This document shows positions 353-39,983 of a stretch of 41,647 nucleotides of DNA, piece after piece. Both the position numbers and the translations under genes were made by a program. This stretch comes from Eggerthellaceae bacterium (GTDB taxonomy: Bacteria; Bacteroidota; Bacteroidia; Bacteroidales; UBA932), in contig CAVIKQ010000001.1 of assembly GCA_963643305.1 (NCBI GenBank), positions 1 through 41,647 of the forward strand. The letters are read 5' to 3'. Under the pieces are notes generated by a model, which saw nothing but the letters and a program-made list of their open reading frames with translations, was not told the origin of the DNA and ran no database searches. Every line of letters begins with the position of its first letter. Within the stretch, counting starts at the first letter, position 1.

Positions 353-1489
353 ATGACAAAAATCATCAAAAATCCATTTATCATAACACCATTTGTTCCG
401 GAGGAATACTTCTGCGACAGAACTAAAGAAACGGCAGAGCTTTGCAAGCATATTCTCAACGGACGTAATGTAGCATTGTTTGCAAAAAGAAGATTGGGCA
501 AGACCGGGCTCATAAGGCACTGCTTTGAGCAGAGAACCATTAAGGAACACTACAACACATTTCTTATTGACATCTATTCAGCAGGTTCTCTCAAAGAGAT
601 GACATCTCTGGTAGCAAAGGAGGTGTTCGCAAAAAGTGGTGTGTTCGGAATAAAGGAAAAACTGTTAAACGGGCTGAAATCCATAAAGCCAACCATAGAA
701 TACAACGAACTGACAGCATCGTTTTCATTAGGAGCAGGTATGGCGGAGATAAAGAATCCCGACAAGACTCTCGAAGAGATTATTTCTGTGCTGGACTCGT
801 TAAAGAAGCCAACCGTCATTGCCATTGATGAGTTTCAACAAATCAGAGACTTTAAGGAAAAGAATGTTGAGGCTTATCTGAGGAGTTTGATGCAGCGGTG
901 CAGGAACATCTCGTTCATATACGCCGGGAGTATCAGCCACGCCATGAACAACATGTTCAAATCTCCGGATAAACCTTTCTACAACAGTGCCGTGATGATG
1001 ACAATTGGCGTGATTGACAAAACGGCCTACAGAGTGTTTGCAATAAGAATGTTCAACAAGTTTGGAAAAAAAGTGCAGCCGGAACTTATTGATAAGAGCT
1101 ATGACTATTTCAACGGTGTCACTTGGTACGTTCAGCTTATGATGAATGAGGCTTTTGCTCAGACATCACCGGGAGAGGAGCTCACAGAATCTGATTTCGG
1201 TTCAGTCTATGATGCCATTATAGCGCAGCAAAGTTTCTCTTATGAGGAACAATTCGCAAGATTTTCCGAAAAACAGAAAGCCTTGTTGGTGGCTGTTGCT
1301 AATGAAGGTCCCGATGGGGCGAGAATCACTTCTGAGGAGTTTATTTCAAAATATGGACTCGGCTCGGCAAGTTCTGTGCAAACGGCCGGGAATGCTCTTA
1401 AAAAGAACAATATTTTGTCTGATAATGGCCAACGGAAACAGATTAATGATTTGATTTTCAGAGACTGGCTTCGTAAATACAGTTGCTGA
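353..1489 (+). CDS. AAA+ ATPase of the ATPase_2/ORC-Cdc6-like type with a C-terminal winged-helix-like region; function unknown
   Basis: 378-aa ORF. Walker A is FAKRRLGKTGL and Walker B is VIAIDEFQQI. The N-terminal NPFI..PFVPEEYFCDR motif is typical of this family. No C-terminal nuclease-like module. Confidence 0.7.
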   Translation: MTKIIKNPFIITPFVPEEYFCDRTKETAELCKHILNGRNVALFAKRRLGKTGLIRHCFEQRTIKEHYNTFLIDIYSAGSLKEMTSLVAKEVFAKSGVFGIKEKLLNGLKSIKPTIEYNELTASFSLGAGMAEIKNPDKTLEEIISVLDSLKKPTVIAIDEFQQIRDFKEKNVEAYLRSLMQRCRNISFIYAGSISHAMNNMFKSPDKPFYNSAVMMTIGVIDKTAYRVFAIRMFNKFGKKVQPELIDKSYDYFNGVTWYVQLMMNEAFAQTSPGEELTESDFGSVYDAIIAQQSFSYEEQFARFSEKQKALLVAVANEGPDGARITSEEFISKYGLGSASSVQTAGNALKKNNILSDNGQRKQINDLIFRDWLRKYSC

Positions 1490-1504
1490 CGCAACGCAAA
1501 AAAA

Positions 1505-1564
1505 GGGGAACTGACTTGAATCAATTCCCTTTCTTTTGTCGGGGTACTCCGACTCGAACGGAGG
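1505..1564 (-). repeat. Orphan copy of the tRNA-Pro 3' end (26 nt) plus 34 nt of its downstream flank
   Basis: 59/60 identical to 1672-1731 at a 167-bp offset, preceded by an A-run in both copies. There is no 5' tRNA half next to it. Confidence 0.85.
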
Positions 1565-1671
1565 TGCGCCAGAGGACTGGCGCTCAGTGCAGTTGCTAAC
1601 GCAACGCCTAAGCTCACTACGTTCGCGCCTTCGGCTTATTACGGGCCCTCCGTTCTCGTACAATACAAAAA

Positions 1672-1731
1672 GGGGAACTGACTTGAATCAATTCCCTTTC
1701 CTTTGTCGGGGTACTCCGACTCGAACGGAGG
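1672..1731 (-). repeat. Master copy of the 60-nt repeat (tRNA-Pro T-arm and acceptor 3' strand plus downstream hairpin)
   Basis: Direct repeat of 1505-1564. It contains the hairpin GGGAA-N13-TTCCC followed on the minus strand by CTTTTT, a tRNA terminator-like element. Confidence 0.85.
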
Positions 1732-1779
1732 ACCCTCTGCTCCCAAAGCAGATGCGCTAGCCAACTGCGCCACACCCCG
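1706..1779 (-). tRNA. tRNA-Pro (anticodon TGG)
   Basis: Hand-folded cloverleaf: acceptor CGGGGTG/TACCCCG, D arm GCGC..GCGC, anticodon arm TCTGC-TTTGGGA-GCAGA, T arm CTCCG-TTCGAGT-CGGAG, discriminator A. CCA is not encoded. Confidence 0.92.
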
Positions 1780-1902
1780 AATCTTGAAGAAAACCGTGGT
1801 TTTCCCTCAAAGCGGATGCAAAGGTATGCCGTTTTTTTTAAACTTCCAAATTTTTTAATTGAATCTAAGACGAAAAAAAGAAGATAATATACAATAAACA
1901 TA

Positions 1903-1910
1903 TATATTTG
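1903..1910 (+). promoter_or_regulatory. -7 promoter box (TATATTTG) for the riboswitch-led operon
   Basis: Exact TAnnTTTG match a few nt upstream of the start of the riboswitch aptamer. Confidence 0.45.
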
Positions 1911-1914
1911 CAGC

Positions 1915-2092
1915 AGGATTAGTAATCGGGACATTACAAGTTCCGATGCAAGGGAATCCGGTGCAATTCCGGAGCTGTACCTGCAGCTGTAAATCCTCGT
2001 CACATTGGTTGGATAGTCCAAAACCACTGTTTCAATTGGAGAAATGGGAAGGTTTCCAACCGGAGGAAAGCCAGAAGACCTGCTAAGACTGT
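1915..2092 (+). promoter_or_regulatory. Cobalamin (B12) riboswitch
   Basis: Conserved core AGGGAAtccGGTGcAAttCCggaGCtGtaCCtGCagCTGTAA, then CCACTG...GGGAAGG, then a B12 box AGCCAGAAGACCTGC (2069-2083). It lies in the 5' leader of a TonB-dependent receptor gene. Confidence 0.88.
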
Positions 2093-2229
2093 TAAACAAA
2101 GCACCAGGCTTCCAGGATTAGAAGTATGTGTCCATTCGAGCAAGCGTTTCCAACGTCTTTTCCTTTGTGGCGTTTCTCCCTATAACAGAGAAGTTTGGCG
2201 TTTTATTTTGTAACTAAATAGAACAGAAT

Positions 2230-4293
2230 ATGAGGATTTTAGTTTCTGCCATGCTACTGTTGTTAGGAGCACAGATTGTAAGTGCTCAAAGTATTATCAA
2301 GGAGCAAGAGGAGAAAGAGCTGCTCCTGTTGCTCAATGAAGTGGTCATTACCGGTACTGGTACCGAGCACTACATGAAGAATGCCCCGGTACAGACAGAA
2401 GTAATTACCGCCAAAGCATTGGAGCAATATCAGGCACGCAATATAGATGATCTGTTAAGCAGCCTTATCCCCTCATTAACCTTTAGAGACGGAGATATGG
2501 GGAGTCATATTCAACTGAACGGATTGGGTAATGACTATATCCTTATCATGATAAACGGCAAGAGGATGAACGGTGATGTTGGAGGACAGAACGACCTGAA
2601 CCAGTTGAATATAGCCAATATAGACCGTATAGAGATTGTAAAAGGCGCAGCATCTTCTCTGTATGGCAGTGATGCAATAGCCGGAGTAATAAATATCATA
2701 ACCAAACGCAACCGGGAAAAGGTAGAGCTTACAAATACATCTCGGGTTGGAGGGCATGGAGATATACTTCAAAGCACCAGTTTTGGGTTTAATTACGGCA
2801 AGCTAAAATCTGTAACCGGAATCAATTTCCGCCATACCGATGGCTGGCAGAATACAGACCTGCAGTGGGATCAGAACCAGTTGAAATCGGGCTCTACCAT
2901 GTTAACTGTAAACCGCTCGTCTAACTACACCCTCTCTGAAAACCTTGAATGGCAGGTAAACCGCAAGCTGAATCTCACGGCAGAGGGTACCTATTATGAA
3001 CGTTGGGTAATGCGTACACACGGCCCGTGGAAATATCAGCCCAACGACTTCTATTATCGCAACTATACATTGGCGGTGGGGAGCAGATATAATTGGGGGA
3101 AACGGAGTTATCTTACGGCAGACCTCTTATACGGCAGGTACGGTTACTTTTATGACTATAAGCTGAATGAACATACAGATTATTTTCTCGATAACGACCG
3201 TCACGAACGTATTACCTATTTTGCAGGGCAGCGCATAAAGCAGAGCATTCAGAAACAACTGTTGGGACAGGTAAAGAGTGTATTTTATCTTGGGGAGCGT
3301 CATATACTGAATACAGGAATCGAATATCAGTACAATCATTTGGAATCTCCTCATCACATAAATGGAGACCGCGCTTCTGTCTATACATTGGCAGCCTATA
3401 TACAGGAGGAGTGGACTGCAAGAGAAAACATGGTCTTTACGGCAGGTGTACGGGGGACACAGCACAAGGAGACAGGATTGAATTTCAGCCCAAAAATATC
3501 GGGACTTTATAAACCGGGAAAATATATTAATCTGCGTGTTTCCTATGCGTTAGGTTACAAATCTCCAACCATTAAGGAGCTGTATTATAATTATACCGGC
3601 ATTATTGGAGGGGGAGCCATGACTGCATACCATGGCAACACAGAGCTAAAAGCGCAGACATCGCAATATGCATCGGTAGGGATTGAGTATGCAGGAAAGA
3701 AGTTAAGGGCAGGCTTAACCGGATATATGAATTTTATCTACAACATGATAGAATTGGTTGAGATTGCCGTAACTCCGGCCGAAAAGATGCTCGAAGTGGA
3801 GAAGAGCAAACAATATACGAACCTTACAAAGGCGCGGGTCAGCGGGATAGACTTTACTTTCAACTACAGACCAGCCAAATCGCTCAGCATTGGAGGAGGC
3901 TACAGTTATACCAACCCAAAAGCACAGTATCCTAATAAGGGAATAGACTATATGAAATATCTCCCGATAGATGCCACCTCCAGGCATAACGCAAACCTGA
4001 ACCTTGTATGGCAACACTCGTGGGAATGGTATCGTCTGGGAATCGGGGTCTATGGCAGGTACCAGTCTACACGCCGTTATATAAAAGATAATGATGCAGA
4101 TGGATTCCAGACATGGCGTATAAATACCGCCCACACTCTATTGAAACTCAAGAGGTGGTCATTAACAATGAATGCCGGAGTAGACAATCTGTTCAACTAT
4201 GTAGACCGTACCCCGTTCGGACGGAACCGTGCCACATCTACTCCGGGAAGAACCTATTATGCATCGGCTCTTATTAAATTCAGAAACAATTGA
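2230..4293 (+). CDS. TonB-dependent outer-membrane receptor, BtuB-like; probable corrinoid or tetrapyrrole uptake
   Basis: 687 aa with a signal peptide ending VSAQS. Plug-domain motifs (NEVVITGTG, IDRIEIVKGAASSLYGSDAIAGVINIITK) and a beta-barrel ending in an aromatic-containing terminal strand (ALIKFRNN). Sits downstream of a cobalamin riboswitch. Confidence 0.9.
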   Translation: MRILVSAMLLLLGAQIVSAQSIIKEQEEKELLLLLNEVVITGTGTEHYMKNAPVQTEVITAKALEQYQARNIDDLLSSLIPSLTFRDGDMGSHIQLNGLGNDYILIMINGKRMNGDVGGQNDLNQLNIANIDRIEIVKGAASSLYGSDAIAGVINIITKRNREKVELTNTSRVGGHGDILQSTSFGFNYGKLKSVTGINFRHTDGWQNTDLQWDQNQLKSGSTMLTVNRSSNYTLSENLEWQVNRKLNLTAEGTYYERWVMRTHGPWKYQPNDFYYRNYTLAVGSRYNWGKRSYLTADLLYGRYGYFYDYKLNEHTDYFLDNDRHERITYFAGQRIKQSIQKQLLGQVKSVFYLGERHILNTGIEYQYNHLESPHHINGDRASVYTLAAYIQEEWTARENMVFTAGVRGTQHKETGLNFSPKISGLYKPGKYINLRVSYALGYKSPTIKELYYNYTGIIGGGAMTAYHGNTELKAQTSQYASVGIEYAGKKLRAGLTGYMNFIYNMIELVEIAVTPAEKMLEVEKSKQYTNLTKARVSGIDFTFNYRPAKSLSIGGGYSYTNPKAQYPNKGIDYMKYLPIDATSRHNANLNLVWQHSWEWYRLGIGVYGRYQSTRRYIKDNDADGFQTWRINTAHTLLKLKRWSLTMNAGVDNLFNYVDRTPFGRNRATSTPGRTYYASALIKFRNN

Positions 4294-4327
4294 GAACCAA
4301 TAATTTATAAACTAAAAATTTATTTGT

Positions 4328-5524
4328 ATGAAACAGTTCAAGTATTATTTGATGGCAACTGTGGTTGCTGTGGTAGCTTGCATGGGTTTAAGCTCATGCA
4401 GTGACAAAGATGATGAGGAAAGTACTTTAAATCCTGCGGCCGAGGTGGTAAACAAGACCAAAAAGTATGACACAGCTATTTTGCTCTGTACTTTTGGAAG
4501 TACCTATAACGAGTCTCTTTCCGTTTATGAAGATGTGATTAAGGATTTTAAAGCCAAGTTCCCCAATACGGACATTTATATGTCGTTCACATCACGTACA
4601 TGTATAGGACGTGTAGAGGCATCTACAGGGGTGGCTCGTTACGAATTGGATCAATGGCTAAAAGCAATTGGAGAGGCCGGTTACAGACGTGTGGCTGTTC
4701 AGTCGTTGCACGTAATTCCGGGAGAAGAGTATCTCTCTCTGATGAATACCGATGTAAAAAAATACTTTATGATTCAGTGGTTCCCTAATATAGATGTGTT
4801 GAGGGGTGCCAACCTGCTTTCAACGGAAGAGGATACAAAAGAGGTGGCCGAGATCCTTTACAAACATTATGAGTCTAAATTGGCCAACAAGAAGAGTATA
4901 GTTCTTCTAATGGGTCATGGTAATCCCGATGAGAATTACAATGCCAACAAGAAATACTCCGATGTAGAAAAAGCCCTGCATGAGCTTTCTGCCAACAACA
5001 ATATCTTTATAGGTACTGTAGATTACGGAGAGATGCTTTTCTTCCCCAATGAAGTAGAGGAGGCTCCGGCAGACAGAATTCCTGTAGAGGGATTTGACAA
5101 GACCCAATATCCCGATTGTATTTACTCTAAGGTTATGAGCTATTGCGAGGAGAACGGTCTTAACCCGTCTGAAGTAAATGTTTATCTTGCTCCTTTCATG
5201 TCTATAGCCGGAGACCATGCCCACAATGACCTTTGGGGATTGGAGGCTATTGCAGAAGGGGATAAGCTGACCGATGTAGAGATTAACACAAACGAATATA
5301 GCTGGCGTGAGCGTTTGGAGAAATTGGGATTCAAGGTAGACAGAACATTTGAGAGCCACCCAACCGATAAAGCCGGTGCAGATCATGGTATTAAAGAGGG
5401 GTGTATGATGAAACCTCTTGGGAGCTATCCGGAGATTCGTCAGATATGGGTAAACCATCTGTATGAGAATTGGAATAATGAGAGTGCATGGGAGAATGGC
5501 AAGGGTTATCAGCCTGAAGCATAG
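4328..5524 (+). CDS. Lipoprotein with a CbiK-type (class II anaerobic cobaltochelatase fold) domain
   Basis: 398 aa. Lipobox GLSSC followed by SDKDDEE. CbiK-like motifs LLCTFGSTY, SLHVIPGEEY, LMGHGNPDENYNANKKY and PFMSIAGDHAHNDL. 34 nt downstream of the receptor gene. Confidence 0.8.
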   Translation: MKQFKYYLMATVVAVVACMGLSSCSDKDDEESTLNPAAEVVNKTKKYDTAILLCTFGSTYNESLSVYEDVIKDFKAKFPNTDIYMSFTSRTCIGRVEASTGVARYELDQWLKAIGEAGYRRVAVQSLHVIPGEEYLSLMNTDVKKYFMIQWFPNIDVLRGANLLSTEEDTKEVAEILYKHYESKLANKKSIVLLMGHGNPDENYNANKKYSDVEKALHELSANNNIFIGTVDYGEMLFFPNEVEEAPADRIPVEGFDKTQYPDCIYSKVMSYCEENGLNPSEVNVYLAPFMSIAGDHAHNDLWGLEAIAEGDKLTDVEINTNEYSWRERLEKLGFKVDRTFESHPTDKAGADHGIKEGCMMKPLGSYPEIRQIWVNHLYENWNNESAWENGKGYQPEA

Positions 5525-5540
5525 TTCTATAGCAACAATA

Positions 5541-5576
5541 AAAAGCCTGAGATGTTTGCTCTCAGGCTTTTTTATT
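5541..5576 (+). terminator. Rho-independent terminator of the riboswitch operon
   Basis: GCCTGAGA-N7-TCTCAGGC stem followed by TTTTTTATT. Confidence 0.7.
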
Positions 5577-5619
5577 GTCATGGTAGAGAAGGGGATGAGA
5601 ACAAGTTCTTGCGTATAAA

Positions 5620-5650
5620 GCAAAAACAACTCGGAGCTTTGCTCCGAGTT
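5620..5650 (-). terminator. Terminator-like hairpin downstream of tRNA-Ser
   Basis: AACTCGGAGC-TTT-GCTCCGAGTT (10-bp stem), followed on the minus strand by GTTTTTGCTTT. Confidence 0.55.
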
Positions 5651-5660
5651 GCCTATGTTG

Positions 5661-5747
5661 CGGTGAAAGGGGGATTCGAACCCCCGGTACGGTTACCCGT
5701 ACGACAGTTTAGCAAACTGTTGGTTTAAGCCACTCACCCATCTCACC
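5661..5747 (-). tRNA. tRNA-Ser (anticodon GCT), type II with a long variable arm
   Basis: Hand-folded: acceptor GGTGAGA/TTTCACC, anticodon arm ACAGT-TTGCTAA-ACTGT, variable arm GTACGG-GTAA-CCGTAC, T arm GGGGG-TTCGAAT-CCCCC. Confidence 0.92.
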
Positions 5748-5807
5748 GGGTTCTGTAACCCCCATTGGGATTGCAAAGGTAGAAATTTATTTCATTTAAA
5801 CAAAAAG

Positions 5808-7886
5808 TTATCTGTTTAACTCTATCTTTTCAACAGTAACTATTATCTTGTTCCCGTGAGGCAGGTTCTCTGCATTTTCTGTTGAGTTTTCTTCTGTTGC
5901 CACGTTTGAGCTTTCCGTTGCCACGCTCTCTTCGCTGCTGCTGTTTGCCGCTTTATCAATCAGCTCTGCAAGCCTCTCTGCCTCTGCCTTGTCTGAGAAA
6001 ACACCTATAGAGTACACAAGAACACCGCCGTCTAAATGCTTGGCAATATCCTTTTCGGTATTCTCCCTAATGACTTTCAAAACAGACTCGCTGATACCCT
6101 CTGTATATCCGGTAATGTTTATCTTATATGTCTCTGCTCCCCTCTTTGCCCCCTTTACATTAACATTCTGTCTGCTGTCTTTGCTTATTTCATTACTGCC
6201 TGGCAGCTTCCCTTCTGCCATCAGTTGCCTCTCCATTGCCCTTGCAGCCGAAAGCGTAAGCGGTTTGCCACTGTCGTATGCTACAATCATAGCGTTGGGG
6301 AACCCTAATTTTTTAACCTTATTAACGTTTGCAAGTGCTCCCGAATAGTTTCTGAAGATACCGGCAGAGTAGATATACTTGCCAGACTGCGCTTTACGTT
6401 CAAAGACCGGAGTAATACCGCCAAACCTCTCTGTCTCTTGCTGCTGAGACACCACAAACAGCTGATACTGATATACCAAACCCTCCGGGAGAGCAGTAAA
6501 TTCATATATCATAGGGGTTGTCTCCTCTATATTTATAGTTATCCCTGTAGGAGGGGCGGCAGCTTCAACGGTAAACAGAGGAGCCTCCCCCAAAAGATTG
6601 CTTGCAAAACAGAATCGGTTATCCCCCTTATGCTCCTCCTGCTCTGTAGAGATGGCATGGTCTGTCTCCTCCTCCGTTTCCTGCGGAATGATTATCCCCT
6701 TTGACAGAAAATCCATCTCCAATTCCTGTAATCTATAGGAGGTTCTGTTCAAACTGTCTCTCATCTGAAGCACATTGGTCTCCTGCTCGGATATCTTGCG
6801 AGCCAAAGTCTTAAGATCTGTCTCGTCTTTAAGGGTATTGTACAGATTCCTGTTGCTGTCTATTAACGCTATAGCCTCCTTAATCTGTTTTCTCAGGGTC
6901 CTTACGGTAGTTACAACATTACGGAACTCGGTATATTCCGTTGAACCGTTATCCGTTTGGTCGTTGCCTGCACCCTCTTTCTGTTCAGATGGAGTGTCAA
7001 TCCCCTGTGCAGAGGGGATGAGATGAGATATTTCCCGTGCTTCCGAGGGTGAAATCCTCTTTTTAACCGGCAGGTTGTCAAAAGCCAATGCATAGACCAT
7101 TATGCTGTCTTTTCTTGTGTCGCGCGTAGATGCAAAAATAGAGAAGTTGCCATCGGGAGTATCATAATATAGAAAATCATCTTCCGGAGAGGAAAACGGA
7201 AACCCAAGATTCTGGGCAACCCCCCAATCGTTACTCTCTTCATCCCACCTGCTCACATAAATGTCAAATCCACCTATCCCATAATGTCCGTTAGATGAGA
7301 AATATAGAGATTTGCCATCCTCTGTTATGTAAGGAAACAGCTCGTCGCCGGTTGAGGTTATGTTTTCATTCAGCATCTCCGGATATGTCCACTCACCGTT
7401 CTCCTTTAATGTAGAGGAGTAGATATTCCAGGAACCGCTGTTGTCTTTTGCGCTGAAGACCAATTTGCGGGCGTTATTGGGGAGAAACATATAGCTCCTC
7501 TCTCCGCTTTCCCCTGCAAACTCCCGTGGTGTAAGAACCCATTTGCCGCTGTTAAAGCCGGGATAGAGAAGAAAAAAATTCTTTAGAGAAGCCTCCTTTG
7601 TCGTAATGACAGTAGGAGAGTATGCAAAATTGAGCATGCTGCTCCCGTTCTGGCTCTGTGCCAAGAGCTTGTTAAGCGTATTAACATTCCCCATAACACC
7701 CTCTGTGGTTGTATCCTGTGCCACTTTCATCAGGCCGGTATATATCTCAATCGCTTTGTTGAATTCGTAACTTTTGTGAAAAGATTCCGCCTCTTTAAGT
7801 TTGGCGTTCATATCTTGTGCGCCAAGGCTCAAAGTTGTTAGCAGGGAGGTTATGATAAGTAACAGAGATAGCTCTTTTTTTGGCAT
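5808..7886 (-). CDS. Envelope protein with signal peptide, TolB-like PD40 beta-propeller repeats, a coiled-coil/acidic linker and two SPOR-like C-terminal domains
   Basis: Start moved to the internal Met (MPKKELSLLLIITSLLTTLSLGAQD, a signal peptide) because a -7 box lies at 7910-7917. PD40-like repeats (LYFSSNGHYGIGGFDIYVS, FASTRDT). SPOR-like segments (YQLFVV...AGIFRNYSGALANVNKVKKLGFPNAMIV and YSIGVFSDKAEAERL). Confidence 0.7.
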   Translation of the reverse strand: MPKKELSLLLIITSLLTTLSLGAQDMNAKLKEAESFHKSYEFNKAIEIYTGLMKVAQDTTTEGVMGNVNTLNKLLAQSQNGSSMLNFAYSPTVITTKEASLKNFFLLYPGFNSGKWVLTPREFAGESGERSYMFLPNNARKLVFSAKDNSGSWNIYSSTLKENGEWTYPEMLNENITSTGDELFPYITEDGKSLYFSSNGHYGIGGFDIYVSRWDEESNDWGVAQNLGFPFSSPEDDFLYYDTPDGNFSIFASTRDTRKDSIMVYALAFDNLPVKKRISPSEAREISHLIPSAQGIDTPSEQKEGAGNDQTDNGSTEYTEFRNVVTTVRTLRKQIKEAIALIDSNRNLYNTLKDETDLKTLARKISEQETNVLQMRDSLNRTSYRLQELEMDFLSKGIIIPQETEEETDHAISTEQEEHKGDNRFCFASNLLGEAPLFTVEAAAPPTGITINIEETTPMIYEFTALPEGLVYQYQLFVVSQQQETERFGGITPVFERKAQSGKYIYSAGIFRNYSGALANVNKVKKLGFPNAMIVAYDSGKPLTLSAARAMERQLMAEGKLPGSNEISKDSRQNVNVKGAKRGAETYKINITGYTEGISESVLKVIRENTEKDIAKHLDGGVLVYSIGVFSDKAEAERLAELIDKAANSSSEESVATESSNVATEENSTENAENLPHGNKIIVTVEKIELNR

Positions 7887-34868: not shown

Positions 34869-36707
34869 ATGGATGTTAGAAACAAAGTGGCACTGCTGCC
34901 GCACTCTCCGGGAGTGTACCGGTTTTATGACAATGCCGGTGTAGTCATATATATTGGCAAGGCAAAAGATCTGCATAAAAGGGTCTCATCTTACTTTGTG
35001 GCTGTAGATAAGAAACCGGTGAAGACCAAGATGTTGGTAAGCAAGATTGCAGATGTTGCCCATACGGTGGTAGAGACAGAGGAGGATGCTTTTCTGTTAG
35101 AGAACAATCTTATAAAGCAGTACAAGCCCAAATACAATATCCTGCTCAAAGACAGCAAAGGCTATCCGTGGATTGCCATAAAAAACGAACCTTTTCCAAA
35201 GATTATCCTTACAAGACGTTTTATAAAGGACGGATCGCAATATTTTGGGCCGTACAGCTCTGTAATGCACGCAAAAGAGATAATAAAGCTGATAACATCT
35301 CTTTTTCCGTTAAGAGACTGCAACCTGCAACTTTCGCGGCAGGGTATAGAGCAGAAAAAGTTTAAGCCATGTCTTAACTACCATATTAAAAAATGCTGTG
35401 CCCCTTGTGTGGGGTATGTTTCCAATCAACAGTATGACAGCTGGATAGAGGATGTTAAAGAGATACTTAAAGGCAACAGTGCATATCTTATAAAGCAGTT
35501 TAAGGGAAAGATGGAAGAAGCCTCCGCTGCATTGGAGTTTGAAACAGCCATGGAGTATAAGGAGAAGATAACCCTTTTACGCAGTCACTACAGCAAATCG
35601 CTTATAGTACACCCCTCTATAAACAACCTCGACCTCTTTTCCATTGTCTCCGAGAGGGGGAGTGCATTTGGCAACTTTATGAGAATCAATGGAGGCTGTA
35701 TAGTTGAAACCTTTAACATGGAGTTCAGATTGGGGGTAGAGGAGGAGCAGGCAGAGGTACTCTCCCGTTTTATAATGGAGGCATACAAGATGCTTTGGCA
35801 AGGGAAGAATATTTCAGCTCAGCTACCGGCCAATTTCCTTTCACAGGCAGCGTGTGCAGAGATATTGGTACCATTTATGCCGTTGGATATGGAGATTTCA
35901 GAGAGGTTCAGGGTCCCCTTAAAAGGGGACAAAGCCGCCCTGTTGGATTTGAGTACAAAAAACGCCAATGCCTTTAAATTTGAAAGGCTTAAGCAGGAGG
36001 AGATAAAGAACCCTCAGGAGGCAGATACCAACAGACTGCAACGGTTAAAGGAGGATCTTAAATTAAAACATCTGCCATATCACATAGAATGTTTCGACAA
36101 CTCTAACATACAGGGCACCAATCCTGTAGCTTCTTGCGTGGTATTTAAGAACGGCAAACCATCCAAGAAAGATTACAGACATTTTAAGATAAAAACAGTA
36201 GTGGGGGCAAATGATTTTGCATCTATGTATGAAGTTGTGTACAGACGCTATTCCAGATTATTACAAGAGGGGGGAGAACTGCCTCAACTTATCCTTATAG
36301 ATGGAGGGAAAGGGCAGCTCTCCTTTGCGTATAAAGCATTGGCAGACTTAGGCCTTACAGACAAGATAGAGATAGTGAGTATAGCCAAACGATTAGAGGA
36401 GATAATATCTCCGTATGAGGCAACGCCGTTTCTTATTGGCAAGAGTTCTCCATCTTTAAAGATACTCATGCACCTTAGAGATGAAGCACACAGATTTGGC
36501 ATTACGTTCCATAGGCAACTGCGCTCAAAAGCACAGATAAACAGTTGGTTAAGGGAGATTCCGGGAATAGGGGAGGCTACAGAGCAGAAACTGTTGCAAC
36601 ATTTTGGAAGCGTTAAGAGAGTAAAGGAGGCAACATTCACCGAGCTGGCTGCCGTTGCCGGGAAGCGAGCCGCAACCTTAATATCTGAAGCCGAACAAAC
36701 CATGTAA
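34869..36707 (+). CDS. uvrC: Excinuclease ABC subunit C
   Basis: 612 aa. GIY-YIG N-terminus (PGVYRFYDNAGVVIYIGKAKDLHKRV), a UVR domain, an endonuclease V-like domain and a C-terminal (HhH)2. Confidence 0.95.
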   Translation: MDVRNKVALLPHSPGVYRFYDNAGVVIYIGKAKDLHKRVSSYFVAVDKKPVKTKMLVSKIADVAHTVVETEEDAFLLENNLIKQYKPKYNILLKDSKGYPWIAIKNEPFPKIILTRRFIKDGSQYFGPYSSVMHAKEIIKLITSLFPLRDCNLQLSRQGIEQKKFKPCLNYHIKKCCAPCVGYVSNQQYDSWIEDVKEILKGNSAYLIKQFKGKMEEASAALEFETAMEYKEKITLLRSHYSKSLIVHPSINNLDLFSIVSERGSAFGNFMRINGGCIVETFNMEFRLGVEEEQAEVLSRFIMEAYKMLWQGKNISAQLPANFLSQAACAEILVPFMPLDMEISERFRVPLKGDKAALLDLSTKNANAFKFERLKQEEIKNPQEADTNRLQRLKEDLKLKHLPYHIECFDNSNIQGTNPVASCVVFKNGKPSKKDYRHFKIKTVVGANDFASMYEVVYRRYSRLLQEGGELPQLILIDGGKGQLSFAYKALADLGLTDKIEIVSIAKRLEEIISPYEATPFLIGKSSPSLKILMHLRDEAHRFGITFHRQLRSKAQINSWLREIPGIGEATEQKLLQHFGSVKRVKEATFTELAAVAGKRAATLISEAEQTM

Positions 36708-36804
36708 TAAGGTGTCTTACAAGGTTTTTCTATGGCTGAAATAATAACTTAACAAAAAATTAAACAGCGTATAATTACAGAAAAAAACCGGCAACAAAAA
36801 AAGC

Positions 36805-36825
36805 ACTTCTCTTACTAAGAGAAGT
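36805..36825. repeat. Perfect palindrome (10+1+10) containing the left copy of a 17-bp inverted repeat
   Basis: ACTTCTCTTA-C-TAAGAGAAGT. The core TTCTCTTACTAAGAGAA (36807-36823) is the exact reverse complement of 36971-36987. On the minus strand it is followed by TGCTTTTTTTGTTGCCGGTTTTTTT. Confidence 0.85.
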
Positions 36826-36836
36826 ACAGCACAGCG

Positions 36837-36844
36837 CAAAGTTA
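36837..36844 (-). promoter_or_regulatory. -7 promoter box (TAACTTTG on the minus strand) between the two palindromes
   Basis: The plus strand reads CAAAGTTA. It is the only exact TAnnTTTG on either strand that I found in 36708-37056, and it points away from the downstream lipoprotein gene. Confidence 0.4.
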
Positions 36845-36966
36845 TACAAATTCGCACAAATAGCAAGCGAAATTGCAAAAAAATCTTTTCAGAAAAAATC
36901 AATTTTCTCAACAAATTTGGGGAATTTGCAAGCAAAAGCCGCGTAAATATCTGATTATCAACGCCT

Positions 36967-36991
36967 GTATTTCTCTTAGTAAGAGAAATAC
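36967..36991. repeat. Perfect palindrome (12+1+12) containing the right copy of the 17-bp inverted repeat
   Basis: GTATTTCTCTTA-G-TAAGAGAAATAC, with core TTCTCTTAGTAAGAGAA at 36971-36987. It lies 66 nt upstream of the ATG at 37057. Confidence 0.85.
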
Positions 36992-37056
36992 ATAAATGCA
37001 TCACGTTAAAGTAGAGAATAACACAACCAATTTTTTAATTTAAAAGTGCTTTTATT

Positions 37057-39678
37057 ATGAACAAAAGATTTTTAAGTGCACTTCTTGCAGCTACCTTAAT
37101 GGTGGCCTCAACAGAGGTGTTCGTGTCTTGTAAAGACTATGATGATGACATCGATGCCATCAACACAGAATTGACACAGATCAAATCGCAGATTTCAGCC
37201 ATTGAGGCTAAAATCAACGGAGGACAGTGGATTACCAGTGTAACTCCTGTAACTAACGGTTTCACCGTAACATTCTCAGGCGGTGGAAGCTATACCATCA
37301 CAAACGGTAAAGACGGTGCTGACGGTGCAACAGGTGCTGACGGTAAGAACGGTACACAATGGACCATTTCAGAGGATGGCTATTGGGTATGCGACGGTGT
37401 AAAGACAGACGTCAAGGCTGTCGGTGTTGACGGTAAAGACGGTGCTAACGGTGCCGACGGTGAAAACGGCAAAGACGGCGTTGACGGCAAGGACGGCAAG
37501 GACGGCAAGGATGCCCTTAACGCCGTAAAGAAAGAGAACGGCAAATGGTATTTGTGGAACGGAACAGAGTATGAGGAGTTCACAGTAGCTGCTGCCGACA
37601 ATATCCCTTACTGCTACACCGACCCAGACGATACCAACTATGCAGTATTGGTAATATATGACGAGAACGGCGAGAACAAACAGGAGATTCGTCTTCCTTT
37701 GAACGAAGGTCTTGCTCAGATTGCAATCCTTAATGCAGACGATGTGCTTACCGTTAACTACGCAATCTACCAGGTTAAAAGCGCAAAACAGGCTGTTTGG
37801 GATGGTGCAAAACCTGCCCCTGTAAAAGGTGAGTATATCATCACCCAGTCTATGGACAGCATTTTGGTACAGGTAACCCCAACCAACTACGATTTGGCAG
37901 CCATTTCATCATTCTCGTTGGTTAACTCATTGAGCGAGGCTGCTCCTGTAGCCGTAGGCGCTCCTGTTGCTTACAATAAAGTACTTACAAGAGCTGCTTC
38001 AAAAGGCGGCCTTTATCAGATGTCTGTAACTGCTGACCCTATTACAGACGAGAGCAAGGCAGCATATACAGTTGATGGTGGCAGATATATTGCACTTTCA
38101 CTCAAAGCCAACGATAAGGTACGTTCAGGTTATGAGCTTAAATACAAACTTAACGAGGTAACATCTTCTCCAATAATAAAGTTTGAGAGAGCTGTTACAA
38201 CCAAACCGGGTGAGCCTGTAACAATCAAGGTAACAGAGGGAGCAGAGTATCTTTACGATGCTTACATGTACACAGCAAACGAGCACAGCAAGGCTGACTC
38301 TTTAAAATTCGGTTTGGAGACAGGCAAAACCCTTACCGTTAAGAGCAATGCAGACGCTTTTGGTACTGTAAACTTTACAATCCGTTATTGTGATGTATTG
38401 GGCGCTATTAAAGAGGCATCTGTAGATGTTACATTCTCAGACAACAAGGTGGTAGAGGTTAACAACGTTGTTGACACTACAGATCATGTAGCAACAGGAA
38501 CGAAGACTGCTCTCCAATACATGTTGGTTGATTTCACTCCTTATCTGAAGAGCATGACAGAGGACGAGAGAACCTACTGGAACGGATATTCATCATTTGA
38601 TAATAGTGTTGAAGTTACTTGGTCAGATATAGACCCTTATCCAGATAGAGAGACAGAGCCTGTAGATGTTACCGGTTTGGTTGCCGGCATAACTAAATGT
38701 AATGCTAAGGGTAAGACCGTTTCTAATAATGCTGATTTCACTCATCTGAAAGTAACATTCAAAGAAAACTACAAAGATGCTGACAATAACAATGTAACCT
38801 TAGGTATTAAAAATGGTGCTACATTCACTGCACAGGTAAGAATCAACAGAGCAGCAAACGGAGAAGACCATATTGTATATGTACCATTTACAATTGATAA
38901 CCCTGTTGCAACCGAGTACAGCTCATTGTACACATTCAACCCTGCATATTTTGCAAATGGCACACTTACACTTATAGATACACCTTTTGATACCGAGGTT
39001 GACTTGAGCGATTATGTTAAAGAGGGAGCTTCTTACCTTGACTATACAAGAGCTGCATCTACTGAGAAGACGTTAATCCCTGTTGTTAAGAGTGGCGTGG
39101 AGCCGGATGTTGTTAGCACAAGCAAGATAAAGAGGGTAACTCCTACAGCTAATCCAACTACCGGAGTAACTCCAAAAGCTCCAACCAGCACTACTATAAG
39201 CGGCTGGCAGGTTAAATACATGGATCGTTTGTTCCCTGTATCTGCATTCAAGGTTAAGTTCGCAGCCTCAACAGACTACACTGTAGTAGCAGACAGCGCA
39301 TCTGTAAGCATCCTAAGCGGTGTTGACGTTGAGAGAGCTAAACTGTACTACAGAGATGTTACAACCGATGCAGCAAAAGCAGCTAAGTATCCTAACTTCT
39401 TCTATTTGAAAGCAGCTGACGGTACATATACACAAAATGGCGTGACATGTAAATTCATCTTTGGAGAAGAGGAGGACGGTACTCCTATCGCAGAGAATGA
39501 CTATATTAAGTTTGGTACATGGCAGACTGATGCTAGCGGAGTAGGTTATTTTGCAATAACAGCTAAAAAGAAAGTAACTGTTGATACTCAGATACCGGTA
39601 ACAGTAGTATGTACAATAGGCGGTAAGGAGTACACAGGTGAGTTTACAGTTACTGTAAAGGCATACCCTGTTAATTAG
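37057..39678 (+). CDS. Surface lipoprotein with an N-terminal coiled coil and two collagen-like G-X-Y repeat blocks; large beta-rich C-terminal region of unknown function
   Basis: 873 aa. Lipobox VFVSC followed by KDYDDD. A heptad-like segment (INTELTQIKSQISAIEAKI). G-X-Y runs GKDGADGATGADGKNG and GVDGKDGANGADGENGKDGVDGKDGKDGKD, each followed by a Trp-rich motif (GYWVCDG, GKWYLWNG). Confidence 0.8.
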   Translation: MNKRFLSALLAATLMVASTEVFVSCKDYDDDIDAINTELTQIKSQISAIEAKINGGQWITSVTPVTNGFTVTFSGGGSYTITNGKDGADGATGADGKNGTQWTISEDGYWVCDGVKTDVKAVGVDGKDGANGADGENGKDGVDGKDGKDGKDALNAVKKENGKWYLWNGTEYEEFTVAAADNIPYCYTDPDDTNYAVLVIYDENGENKQEIRLPLNEGLAQIAILNADDVLTVNYAIYQVKSAKQAVWDGAKPAPVKGEYIITQSMDSILVQVTPTNYDLAAISSFSLVNSLSEAAPVAVGAPVAYNKVLTRAASKGGLYQMSVTADPITDESKAAYTVDGGRYIALSLKANDKVRSGYELKYKLNEVTSSPIIKFERAVTTKPGEPVTIKVTEGAEYLYDAYMYTANEHSKADSLKFGLETGKTLTVKSNADAFGTVNFTIRYCDVLGAIKEASVDVTFSDNKVVEVNNVVDTTDHVATGTKTALQYMLVDFTPYLKSMTEDERTYWNGYSSFDNSVEVTWSDIDPYPDRETEPVDVTGLVAGITKCNAKGKTVSNNADFTHLKVTFKENYKDADNNNVTLGIKNGATFTAQVRINRAANGEDHIVYVPFTIDNPVATEYSSLYTFNPAYFANGTLTLIDTPFDTEVDLSDYVKEGASYLDYTRAASTEKTLIPVVKSGVEPDVVSTSKIKRVTPTANPTTGVTPKAPTSTTISGWQVKYMDRLFPVSAFKVKFAASTDYTVVADSASVSILSGVDVERAKLYYRDVTTDAAKAAKYPNFFYLKAADGTYTQNGVTCKFIFGEEEDGTPIAENDYIKFGTWQTDASGVGYFAITAKKKVTVDTQIPVTVVCTIGGKEYTGEFTVTVKAYPVN
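37306..37512 (+). repeat. Collagen-like triplet-repeat coding region (9-bp periodicity)
   Basis: Block 1 at 37306-37353 (16 aa) and block 2 at 37423-37512 (30 aa). GACGGCAAG is repeated perfectly three times at 37483-37509. Confidence 0.85.
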
Positions 39679-39935: not shown

Positions 39936-39983
39936 CAAGAAAAAAAGGCTTGACTAATACTTTAGTCAAGCCTTTTTTTCTTG
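39936..39983. terminator. Bidirectional terminator downstream of groEL
   Basis: CAAGAAAAAAAGGCTTGACTA-N6-TAGTCAAGCCTTTTTTTCTTG. A 21-bp perfect palindrome with A and T tracts on both sides. Confidence 0.8.

Follow-up and report, generated by a model that had tools for sequence, protein, structure and literature searches.

Invertible promoters are a hallmark of gut Bacteroidales (PMC4611039; PMC12632263). In Bacteroides thetaiotaomicron, paired imperfect palindromes of 17 nt flank the promoters of surface-layer (S-layer; BT1927 family) and capsular polysaccharide (CPS) loci, and the resulting switches, which turn surface lipoproteins ON or OFF, are selected by phage (PMC4611039; bioRxiv 10.1101/521070). 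The present analysis concerns a related element in contig CAVIKQ010000001.1 of an uncultured Bacteroidales species, of which the whole 41.6-kb stretch analysed is referred to as the window. The spacer between uvrC and a gene for a collagen-repeat lipoprotein is considered, with a probability of about 0.9, to hold a site-specific invertible promoter (inverton) that lies in the OFF orientation in the window. An invertible promoter in the OFF state was also the proposal of a first-pass annotation of this DNA, and the proposal is upheld by a segment found in both orientations in related assemblies, by the recurrence of the repeat class at many Bacteroidales surface-structure loci, by flipped members of that class and by its presence in a PhaseFinder catalogue.

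Several other switches are relevant to this locus. Carasso et al. applied PhaseFinder to metagenomic reads and listed invertible regions of ~200 bp in Phocaeicola dorei (bioRxiv 10.1101/2023.03.31.535104; Tables S1/S2), the repeats of which (TGGGGTTCTCTTAGTAAGAGATCCCC, ATCTCTTAGTAAGAGATCGACA, ATCTCTTATTAAGAGATAT and similar) lie beside upxY and regulator genes. The exact 17-mer of the window's locus had no match in the main texts of the literature searched and occurs in supplementary tables only. The Tsr tyrosine invertases BF2766 of B. fragilis and BVU2677 and BVU2684 of P. vulgatus are documented to act on both local and distant promoters (PMC12940148), and PMC12632263 cites Roche-Hakansson 2007 for tyrosine invertases with the same reach. 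Through the same review's citation of Coyne 2003, the serine invertase Mpi of B. fragilis is described as global, flipping many dispersed promoters of surface structures (PMC12632263).

The element in the window is built on two near-perfect 17-bp palindromes, both of the form TTCTCTTA-S-TAAGAGAA and with complementary centre bases. The sequence TTCTCTTACTAAGAGAA lies at 36807-36823 and its reverse complement TTCTCTTAGTAAGAGAA at 36971-36987, a separation of 164 bp, and the asymmetry of each palindrome is confined to its centre base pair. With up to two mismatches allowed, the 17-mer occurs at just these two sites in the window; its chance expectation there is 0.01, and two or more copies were found in 0 of 100 shuffles. 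As inverted repeats, the arms reach inward to 23 nt, of which 22 are complementary, with 135 nt between them, and the left core is embedded in a 10+1+10 palindrome at 36805-36825. These positions, the separation and the 349-bp length of the spacer, which runs from the uvrC stop (36707) to the ATG at 37057, reproduce those given in the first-pass annotation. The right palindrome, described there as 12+1+12 at 36967-36991, was measured as 13+1+13 at 36966-36992.

The sole exact TAnnTTTG on either strand of the spacer is the Bacteroidetes-type -7 box TAACTTTG (Table 1), in agreement with the earlier account of its uniqueness, strand and distance from the left repeat. Inversion of the segment would place this box on the plus strand at 36950-36957, which is 99 nt upstream of the ATG and in line with the previous figure of about 100 nt. 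On the minus strand, the left palindrome folds to an 11-bp hairpin of -13.9 kcal/mol, and this hairpin together with the adjoining TTTTTTTGTTGCCGGTTTTTTT is called as a terminator by a terminator scan. The folding energies of the two repeat hairpins are -12.8 to -13.9 kcal/mol, and their z-scores reach -5.7.

Copies of the locus were retrieved from public assemblies by means of the 17-mer and the proteins of the UvrC cluster; labels such as L001 denote loci taken from these assemblies. Contigs were then aligned to the window (OFF) and to a predicted ON sequence, which is the window with 36824-36970 inverted. The segment bracketed by the repeats is present in both orientations at the window's own locus. 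Contig L047 (CAVHKR010000024.1, from a genome collection) shares ~92% nucleotide identity with the window and is collinear with it on both flanks (735-7222 aligns to 36823-30320, and 106-590 to 37451-36967). The repeat-bounded 181 bp lie on the opposite strand (570-751 aligns to 36807-36987), and L047 fits ON over OFF with a score of 306 against 203. Similarly, L223 (Logan SRR19415658; ~96%) is collinear with the window to 36829, beyond which it follows 36991-36872 in reverse complement. The final 224 nt of L223 can be aligned over their full length to the predicted ON sequence with seven mismatches and a score of 209; the OFF sequence scores 125. The outer flank of L223 is unchanged, but the first base inward of the left core is A in place of G, as it should be if this base moves with the segment; therefore, exchange is placed within or at the 17-bp core. 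Two metagenome contigs from the Joint Genome Institute (JGI), L219 and L220 (~99%), are OFF like the window, with OFF and ON scores of 385 and 250 for the former and of 287 and 216 for the latter.

A further contig, L095 (European Nucleotide Archive, ENA), starts exactly at 36971, and its first 100 nt are identical to the window. This start is the first base past the position at which ON and OFF would differ, which is suggestive as regards mixed orientations within a population. Two separate observations were made on these contigs. The bin that contains L047 carries the label Acutalibacteraceae (Firmicutes), yet the contig matches the window at 92% identity across more than 7 kb and has Bacteroidetes-type features, so that it is probably mis-binned. 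The interior of L220 (JGI 3300001525) lacks 49 bp (window 36880-36928) between two imperfect direct repeats, which leaves the -7 box and both repeats intact.

Opposite orientations could also arise if the repeat-bounded unit were an element resembling a miniature inverted-repeat transposable element (MITE) that carries an outward promoter and had been inserted independently in each direction; units of ~180 bp with terminal inverted repeats are indeed found at many loci and in many genomes. The ON and OFF copies, by contrast, occupy the same position between the same outer flanks, and their junctions are those expected from exchange within the cores. The outer flanks, AAAGCAC and ATACATA, show no target-site duplication, and, outside the promoter and a few blocks, the interiors of different loci have little in common. 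Independent insertion is accordingly considered highly improbable, and a site-specific inversion remains the preferred explanation of the two orientations.

Table 1. Coordinates of the proposed inverton, its target gene and related elements. Positions refer to the window unless a locus label is given.
Feature	Position	Strand	Details
Left inverted-repeat arm	36807-36829		Core TTCTCTTA-C-TAAGAGAA at 36807-36823; proposed recombination site
Right inverted-repeat arm	36965-36987		Core TTCTCTTA-G-TAAGAGAA at 36971-36987; proposed partner recombination site
Invertible segment, 147 bp between cores	36824-36970		OFF in window; opposite strand in L047 and L223, same orientation in L219 and L220
Bacteroidetes-type -7 box TAACTTTG	36837-36844	minus	13 bp inside left core, aimed at uvrC
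Terminator-like element, OFF direction	36781-36827	minus	Left-repeat hairpin 36827-36803, then TTTTTTTGTTGCCGGTTTTTTT; terminator scan and fold
TGATAATC block	36953-36960	minus	~20 nt inside promoter-distal repeat; alignment of 18 diverse class members
Lipoprotein gene, proposed target of regulation	37057-39678	plus	873 aa; open reading frame (ORF) and Pfam
Single-copy element loci	L005 5545-5650; L046 2400-2510; L022 3600-3710; L061 45-150; L036 4548 and 5148		About ten more loci

The repeat pair belongs to a class that recurs in Bacteroidales. Members were found by an exact 17-mer scan of one genome per species and by a paired-pattern scan of metagenome contigs. In the genome scan, exact 17-mer pairs 151-192 bp apart were found in many Bacteroidales, with Phocaeicola vulgatus, P. 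sartorii, Bacteroides spp., Prevotellaceae and Rikenellaceae among the hosts, and several copies lay within ~100 nt of contig ends. A first scan of the metagenomes with an interior 23-mer gave no match; the paired pattern was found at at least 120 loci on metagenome contigs, mostly from human gut. The pooled set comprises at least 141 pairs, many of which are Phocaeicola paralogues or strains and so are not independent. Despite this, the class pattern holds across families.

The centre bases of the 141 pairs follow a polarity rule: 130 pairs are G..C, nine (the window included) are C..G, two are C..C and none is G..G, so that polarity is inverted in 139/141. In 138 of the 141 pairs, an outward-facing TAnnTTTG box is found 11-14 bp to the inner side of one repeat, and in 134 this distance is exactly 13 bp. 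When 18 diverse members were aligned in the direction of their promoters, a common layout emerged: a repeat, a TGAyAAT block ~20 nt further in, a middle part that varies, the -7 box and, 13 nt beyond it, the second repeat. The TGATAATC block of the window corresponds to this semi-conserved block (TGA.AA) and may serve as an accessory site. If the central base is what the recombinase recognizes, G..G or C..C pairs would be in direct orientation and would excise the segment between them, and the near absence of such pairs fits this expectation. The two C..C pairs are at L179 (3-198) and L192 (133-325), one of them at a contig end.

Inversion was also detected at other members of the class. A segment of ~203 bp is inverted between contigs at three Phocaeicola loci (L117 compared with L029, L155 and L214 with L060, and L213 with L106), the flanks of which are 91-100% identical over 0.4-1.5 kb. 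These flips bear on the possibility that the two palindromes are operators for a dimeric factor that loops the promoter DNA without rearrangement, an idea that had earlier been ranked as equally valid. Sites that are near-perfect palindromes suit the binding of a dimer, and a spacing of 164 bp suits looping. Operators, in contrast, do not need the opposite centre polarity seen in 139/141 pairs, and copies in host-associated Bacteroidales are usually paired or at contig ends, with about seven unpaired internal copies. Because neither that polarity rule nor the physical inversion of the segment against collinear flanks, in L047, L223 and the three Phocaeicola loci, is explained by looping, the operator model was rejected and retains only a very slight probability; the equal standing formerly given to it is contradicted by the same two results.

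Exchange between loci extends beyond local flips. Phocaeicola contigs L114 and L132 join the left outer flank of L060 to the right outer flank of L029 (60L+29R), and L136 has the reciprocal combination (29L+60R). The reciprocal outer flanks therefore indicate recombination between distant 17-mer sites, i.e. large rearrangements. A 60L+106R combination was also noted among the Phocaeicola metagenome contigs L114, L132, L136 and L162 when compared with L060, L029 and L106. One further candidate flip, L165 compared with L071, was rejected: the interiors are only 78% identical and the centres are C..G in one and G..C in the other. As inversion cannot change centre polarity, these two are different alleles. 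They represent a Phocaeicola locus beside an integrase, which occurs with the same flanks in both G..C and C..G versions.

The genes next to class members are of the usual kinds found under Bacteroidales invertible promoters. They include the NusG/UpxY-type first genes of polysaccharide loci (L053, L023 and Phocaeicola genes of ~270 aa), DUF3575 genes (L027, L039) and large lipoproteins (L034, L087, L065), of which that of L065 has 888 aa and resembles the lipoprotein of the window.

A different arrangement of the 17-mer is found in Ignavibacteria and in metagenome-assembled genomes (MAGs) of environmental Bacteroidota, where TTCTCTTASTAAGAGAA occurs singly. There it forms the tip of a 60-70-nt palindrome, (G)AACTCATCCCC-N-CCCC-17mer-GGGG-N-GGGGATGAGTT(C), and one contig carries several direct copies of the element, which has no Rfam match. 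It looks like a repetitive extragenic palindromic (REP)- or MITE-like element or a hairpin RNA, distinct from the paired invertons.

Across the class, the two outer flanks of the invertons differ in base composition. On the promoter-facing side, the flank just past the hairpin has a mean of 7.3 T in 14 nt, and the opposite, gene-side flank is A-rich, with 2.2 T and 8.3 A per 14 nt; both means are taken over loci that are not independent. The T-rich flanks support, as a correlation, a possible terminator function of the repeat hairpin, and with the terminator call and the fold of the left palindrome they agree with its earlier description as terminator-like. If the palindromes were static RNA hairpins and nothing more, the left one would be a terminator and the right one a 5′-untranslated region element or attenuator of the lipoprotein mRNA, or part of a small antisense RNA, and no inversion would be involved. 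The good folds of both hairpins and the minus-strand terminator call are compatible with such roles. They leave unexplained the opposite-polarity 17-mers, the -7 box 13 bp away and the observed inversions; furthermore, there is no Rfam match, as a search of 36300-37500 at a permissive threshold gave chance-level matches only. Terminator roles also fit an inverton as secondary functions and so do not compete with it, and hairpins in place of an inverton are judged very unlikely.

From these observations, a mechanism can be proposed for the inverton. In the OFF orientation, the promoter would fire toward the 3′ end of uvrC, and the repeat hairpin with its outer T-run should stop the transcript at once, which would prevent antisense transcription into uvrC. 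Recombination between the two cores would invert the 147-bp segment. In the ON orientation, the promoter would read over the right repeat into the gene at 37057, producing a leader of ~95 nt in which the repeat hairpin would come first and would not be followed by a T-run. The recombinase is envisaged as a Bacteroidales Tsr/integrase-type tyrosine enzyme that acts in trans.

Several points weigh against an invertible promoter at this locus. Inspection of the sequence revealed no clear -33 TTTG at the consensus distance from the -7 box. The orientation differences are between assemblies and strains, not among reads of one clonal population. Some contigs stop close to the left repeat (L001 at 36798, L002 at 36776, and L221 and L222 at 36772). 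Assembly breaks induced by an inverton were considered as the cause and rejected: the contig ends lie upstream of the repeat, beside a strain single-nucleotide polymorphism (SNP) at 36777, in low-coverage assemblies, and are probably due to the low coverage or the SNP. The window pair has the rarer C..G polarity (9/141), and its invertase might not be the one that serves the G..C majority. Finally, no recombinase is encoded in the window. Pfam assignments for 20 large ORFs upstream of uvrC returned housekeeping families only, and tblastn with a Bacteroidales tyrosine integrase gave no match in the window; both searches bear out what the first-pass annotation had stated.

The ORFs of the window include a TonB-dependent receptor, CbiK, SecDF, RNase R, iPGM, DnaE, SufBCD and ribonucleotide reductase, among others, and the neighbours of the inverton are uvrC, an acyltransferase and groEL, with no tyrosine recombinase gene adjacent. 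Elsewhere in the class, a tyrosine integrase (Phage_int_SAM_5, Phage_integrase, Arm-DNA-bind_5) is found 0.36-1.1 kb from one Phocaeicola inverton. An integrase match was present within the fetched DNA at 10 of the 141 paired loci and lay 0.36-1.1 kb from the inverton in eight of them. At L011, the integrase gene ends 22 bp from the repeat; the integrases of L011 and L071 are 400-401 aa long. L011 (1-1321) and L065 (1-420), both from MAG JAWXTT01, have 97/97 nt of interior and repeat in common, and their simplest reading is a single inverton that is present in both orientations in that sample and is flanked at one end by the integrase gene and at the opposite end by the lipoprotein gene. L065 opens with an exact 83/83 fold-back of its own right flank, which is an assembly artefact at the palindromic repeat. 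Because integrases adjoin some invertons of the class, and because tyrosine invertases with local and distant targets are documented, the orphan inverton of the window would most likely be flipped by a trans-acting tyrosine invertase encoded elsewhere in the genome.

The proposed target is a single gene, convergent with groEL. Its product has a signal peptide and a lipobox (...FVSC) followed by KDYDDD. An acidic stretch after the lipidated cysteine is an export signal of Bacteroidetes lipoproteins, and the acidic residues here suggest that the protein is exported to the surface and probably exposed there. The N-terminal DUF4988 domain is followed by a Gly-X-Y collagen-like block (Pfam: DUF4988, Collagen) and a long, variable C-terminal part. 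The protein has more than 2,000 relatives, some of them named 'PL29 family lyase N-terminal domain-containing protein'; no sequence relative was found among solved structures, and an exact look-up returned no other contig. Between the lipoprotein gene and groEL, a long perfect palindrome at 39936-39983, the stem of which measures 20 bp, is bordered on both sides by A- and T-runs. The hairpin was called terminator-like on the minus (groEL) strand, and the palindrome is probably a bidirectional terminator.

The lipoprotein varies strongly between closely related copies of the locus. The L219 orthologue is only 66% identical in protein, although the flanking DNA is 98.9-99% identical; the first 120 residues are the same in both proteins, and their collagen Gly-X-Y blocks are set apart by insertions and deletions (window 37400-39600 against L219 6188-8788). 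In a third sample, represented by L095, the allele is 67% identical and the genes downstream are different ones (ORF6N). Judged from these alleles, the hypervariability is what diversifying selection would be expected to produce in a surface antigen or a phage receptor. An abundant Phocaeicola-type homologue, P0096 (L096-L098), is encoded by loci in which an AraC-like gene precedes an 853-aa lipoprotein gene, and no repeat copy was found within 2.5 kb upstream; therefore, control by invertons of this class is not universal in the lipoprotein family.

A broader interpretation, which is held tentatively and at somewhat below even odds in its full four-part form, treats the 8+1+8 palindromes as a distinct and widespread inverton regulon of Bacteroidaceae, Prevotellaceae and Rikenellaceae. 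Under this interpretation, a dedicated tyrosine invertase encoded beside a 'master' inverton would flip orphan invertons in trans, that of the window included. The single central base pair alone would set polarity and G..G and C..C pairs, which would excise, would therefore be nearly absent. The repeat hairpin would have been recruited to terminate transcription in one orientation, with a T-run confined to the OFF side, and the sites would also drive large rearrangements between invertons.

At the level of the single locus, an uncultured Bacteroidales species would switch a hypervariable collagen-repeat surface lipoprotein ON and OFF by phase variation, through an orphan inverton that lies between core housekeeping genes. 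The phase-variable lipoprotein is a likely target of phage or host immune selection, and the locus can easily be scored for orientation profiling in metagenomes. The class also provides testable rules for inverton prediction, namely centre-base polarity, a -7 box exactly 13 bp from the repeat and a T-run on the OFF side.

The locus can be compared with the described systems. Mpi is a serine recombinase that acts in trans on dispersed promoters, and its repeat consensus, ARACGTWCGT, had no match in 36708-37056, even with one mismatch. The Tsr systems provide the precedent for an inverton that has no adjacent recombinase and is flipped in trans from beside another inverton, although their repeat motif, TACTTNNNANGTAANNGAA, is unlike that of the window. 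The S-layer and CPS switches of B. thetaiotaomicron, the analogue that has received the most study, share with the window a repeat asymmetry confined to the centre. Their repeat, in contrast, is GTTAC-N7-GTAAC with a variable central trinucleotide, a motif with no match in the spacer and a sole one-mismatch match in the window within the lipoprotein ORF at 38218, and their loci usually have an adjacent tyrosine recombinase and an OmpA-like partner, neither of which accompanies the window's inverton.

The Phocaeicola switches of the class WTCTCTTA-N-TAAGAGAW have the same or nearly the same core as the window and a similar size of ~200 bp; the window's repeats carry the core of that class. Exact 17-mer pairs in P. 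vulgatus and P. sartorii place the -7 box at 13 bp, as in the window, and are flipped between metagenome contigs. Unlike these, the window copy lies in a housekeeping neighbourhood (uvrC, groEL) of a different Bacteroidales species, controls, as proposed here, a single lipoprotein gene, has the rarer C..G polarity and extends its palindromes with AT-rich sequence, not GGGG/CCCC. The window inverton is a new example of a catalogued kind of switch; its mechanism is not new, and the current understanding of Bacteroidales phase variation is unchanged.

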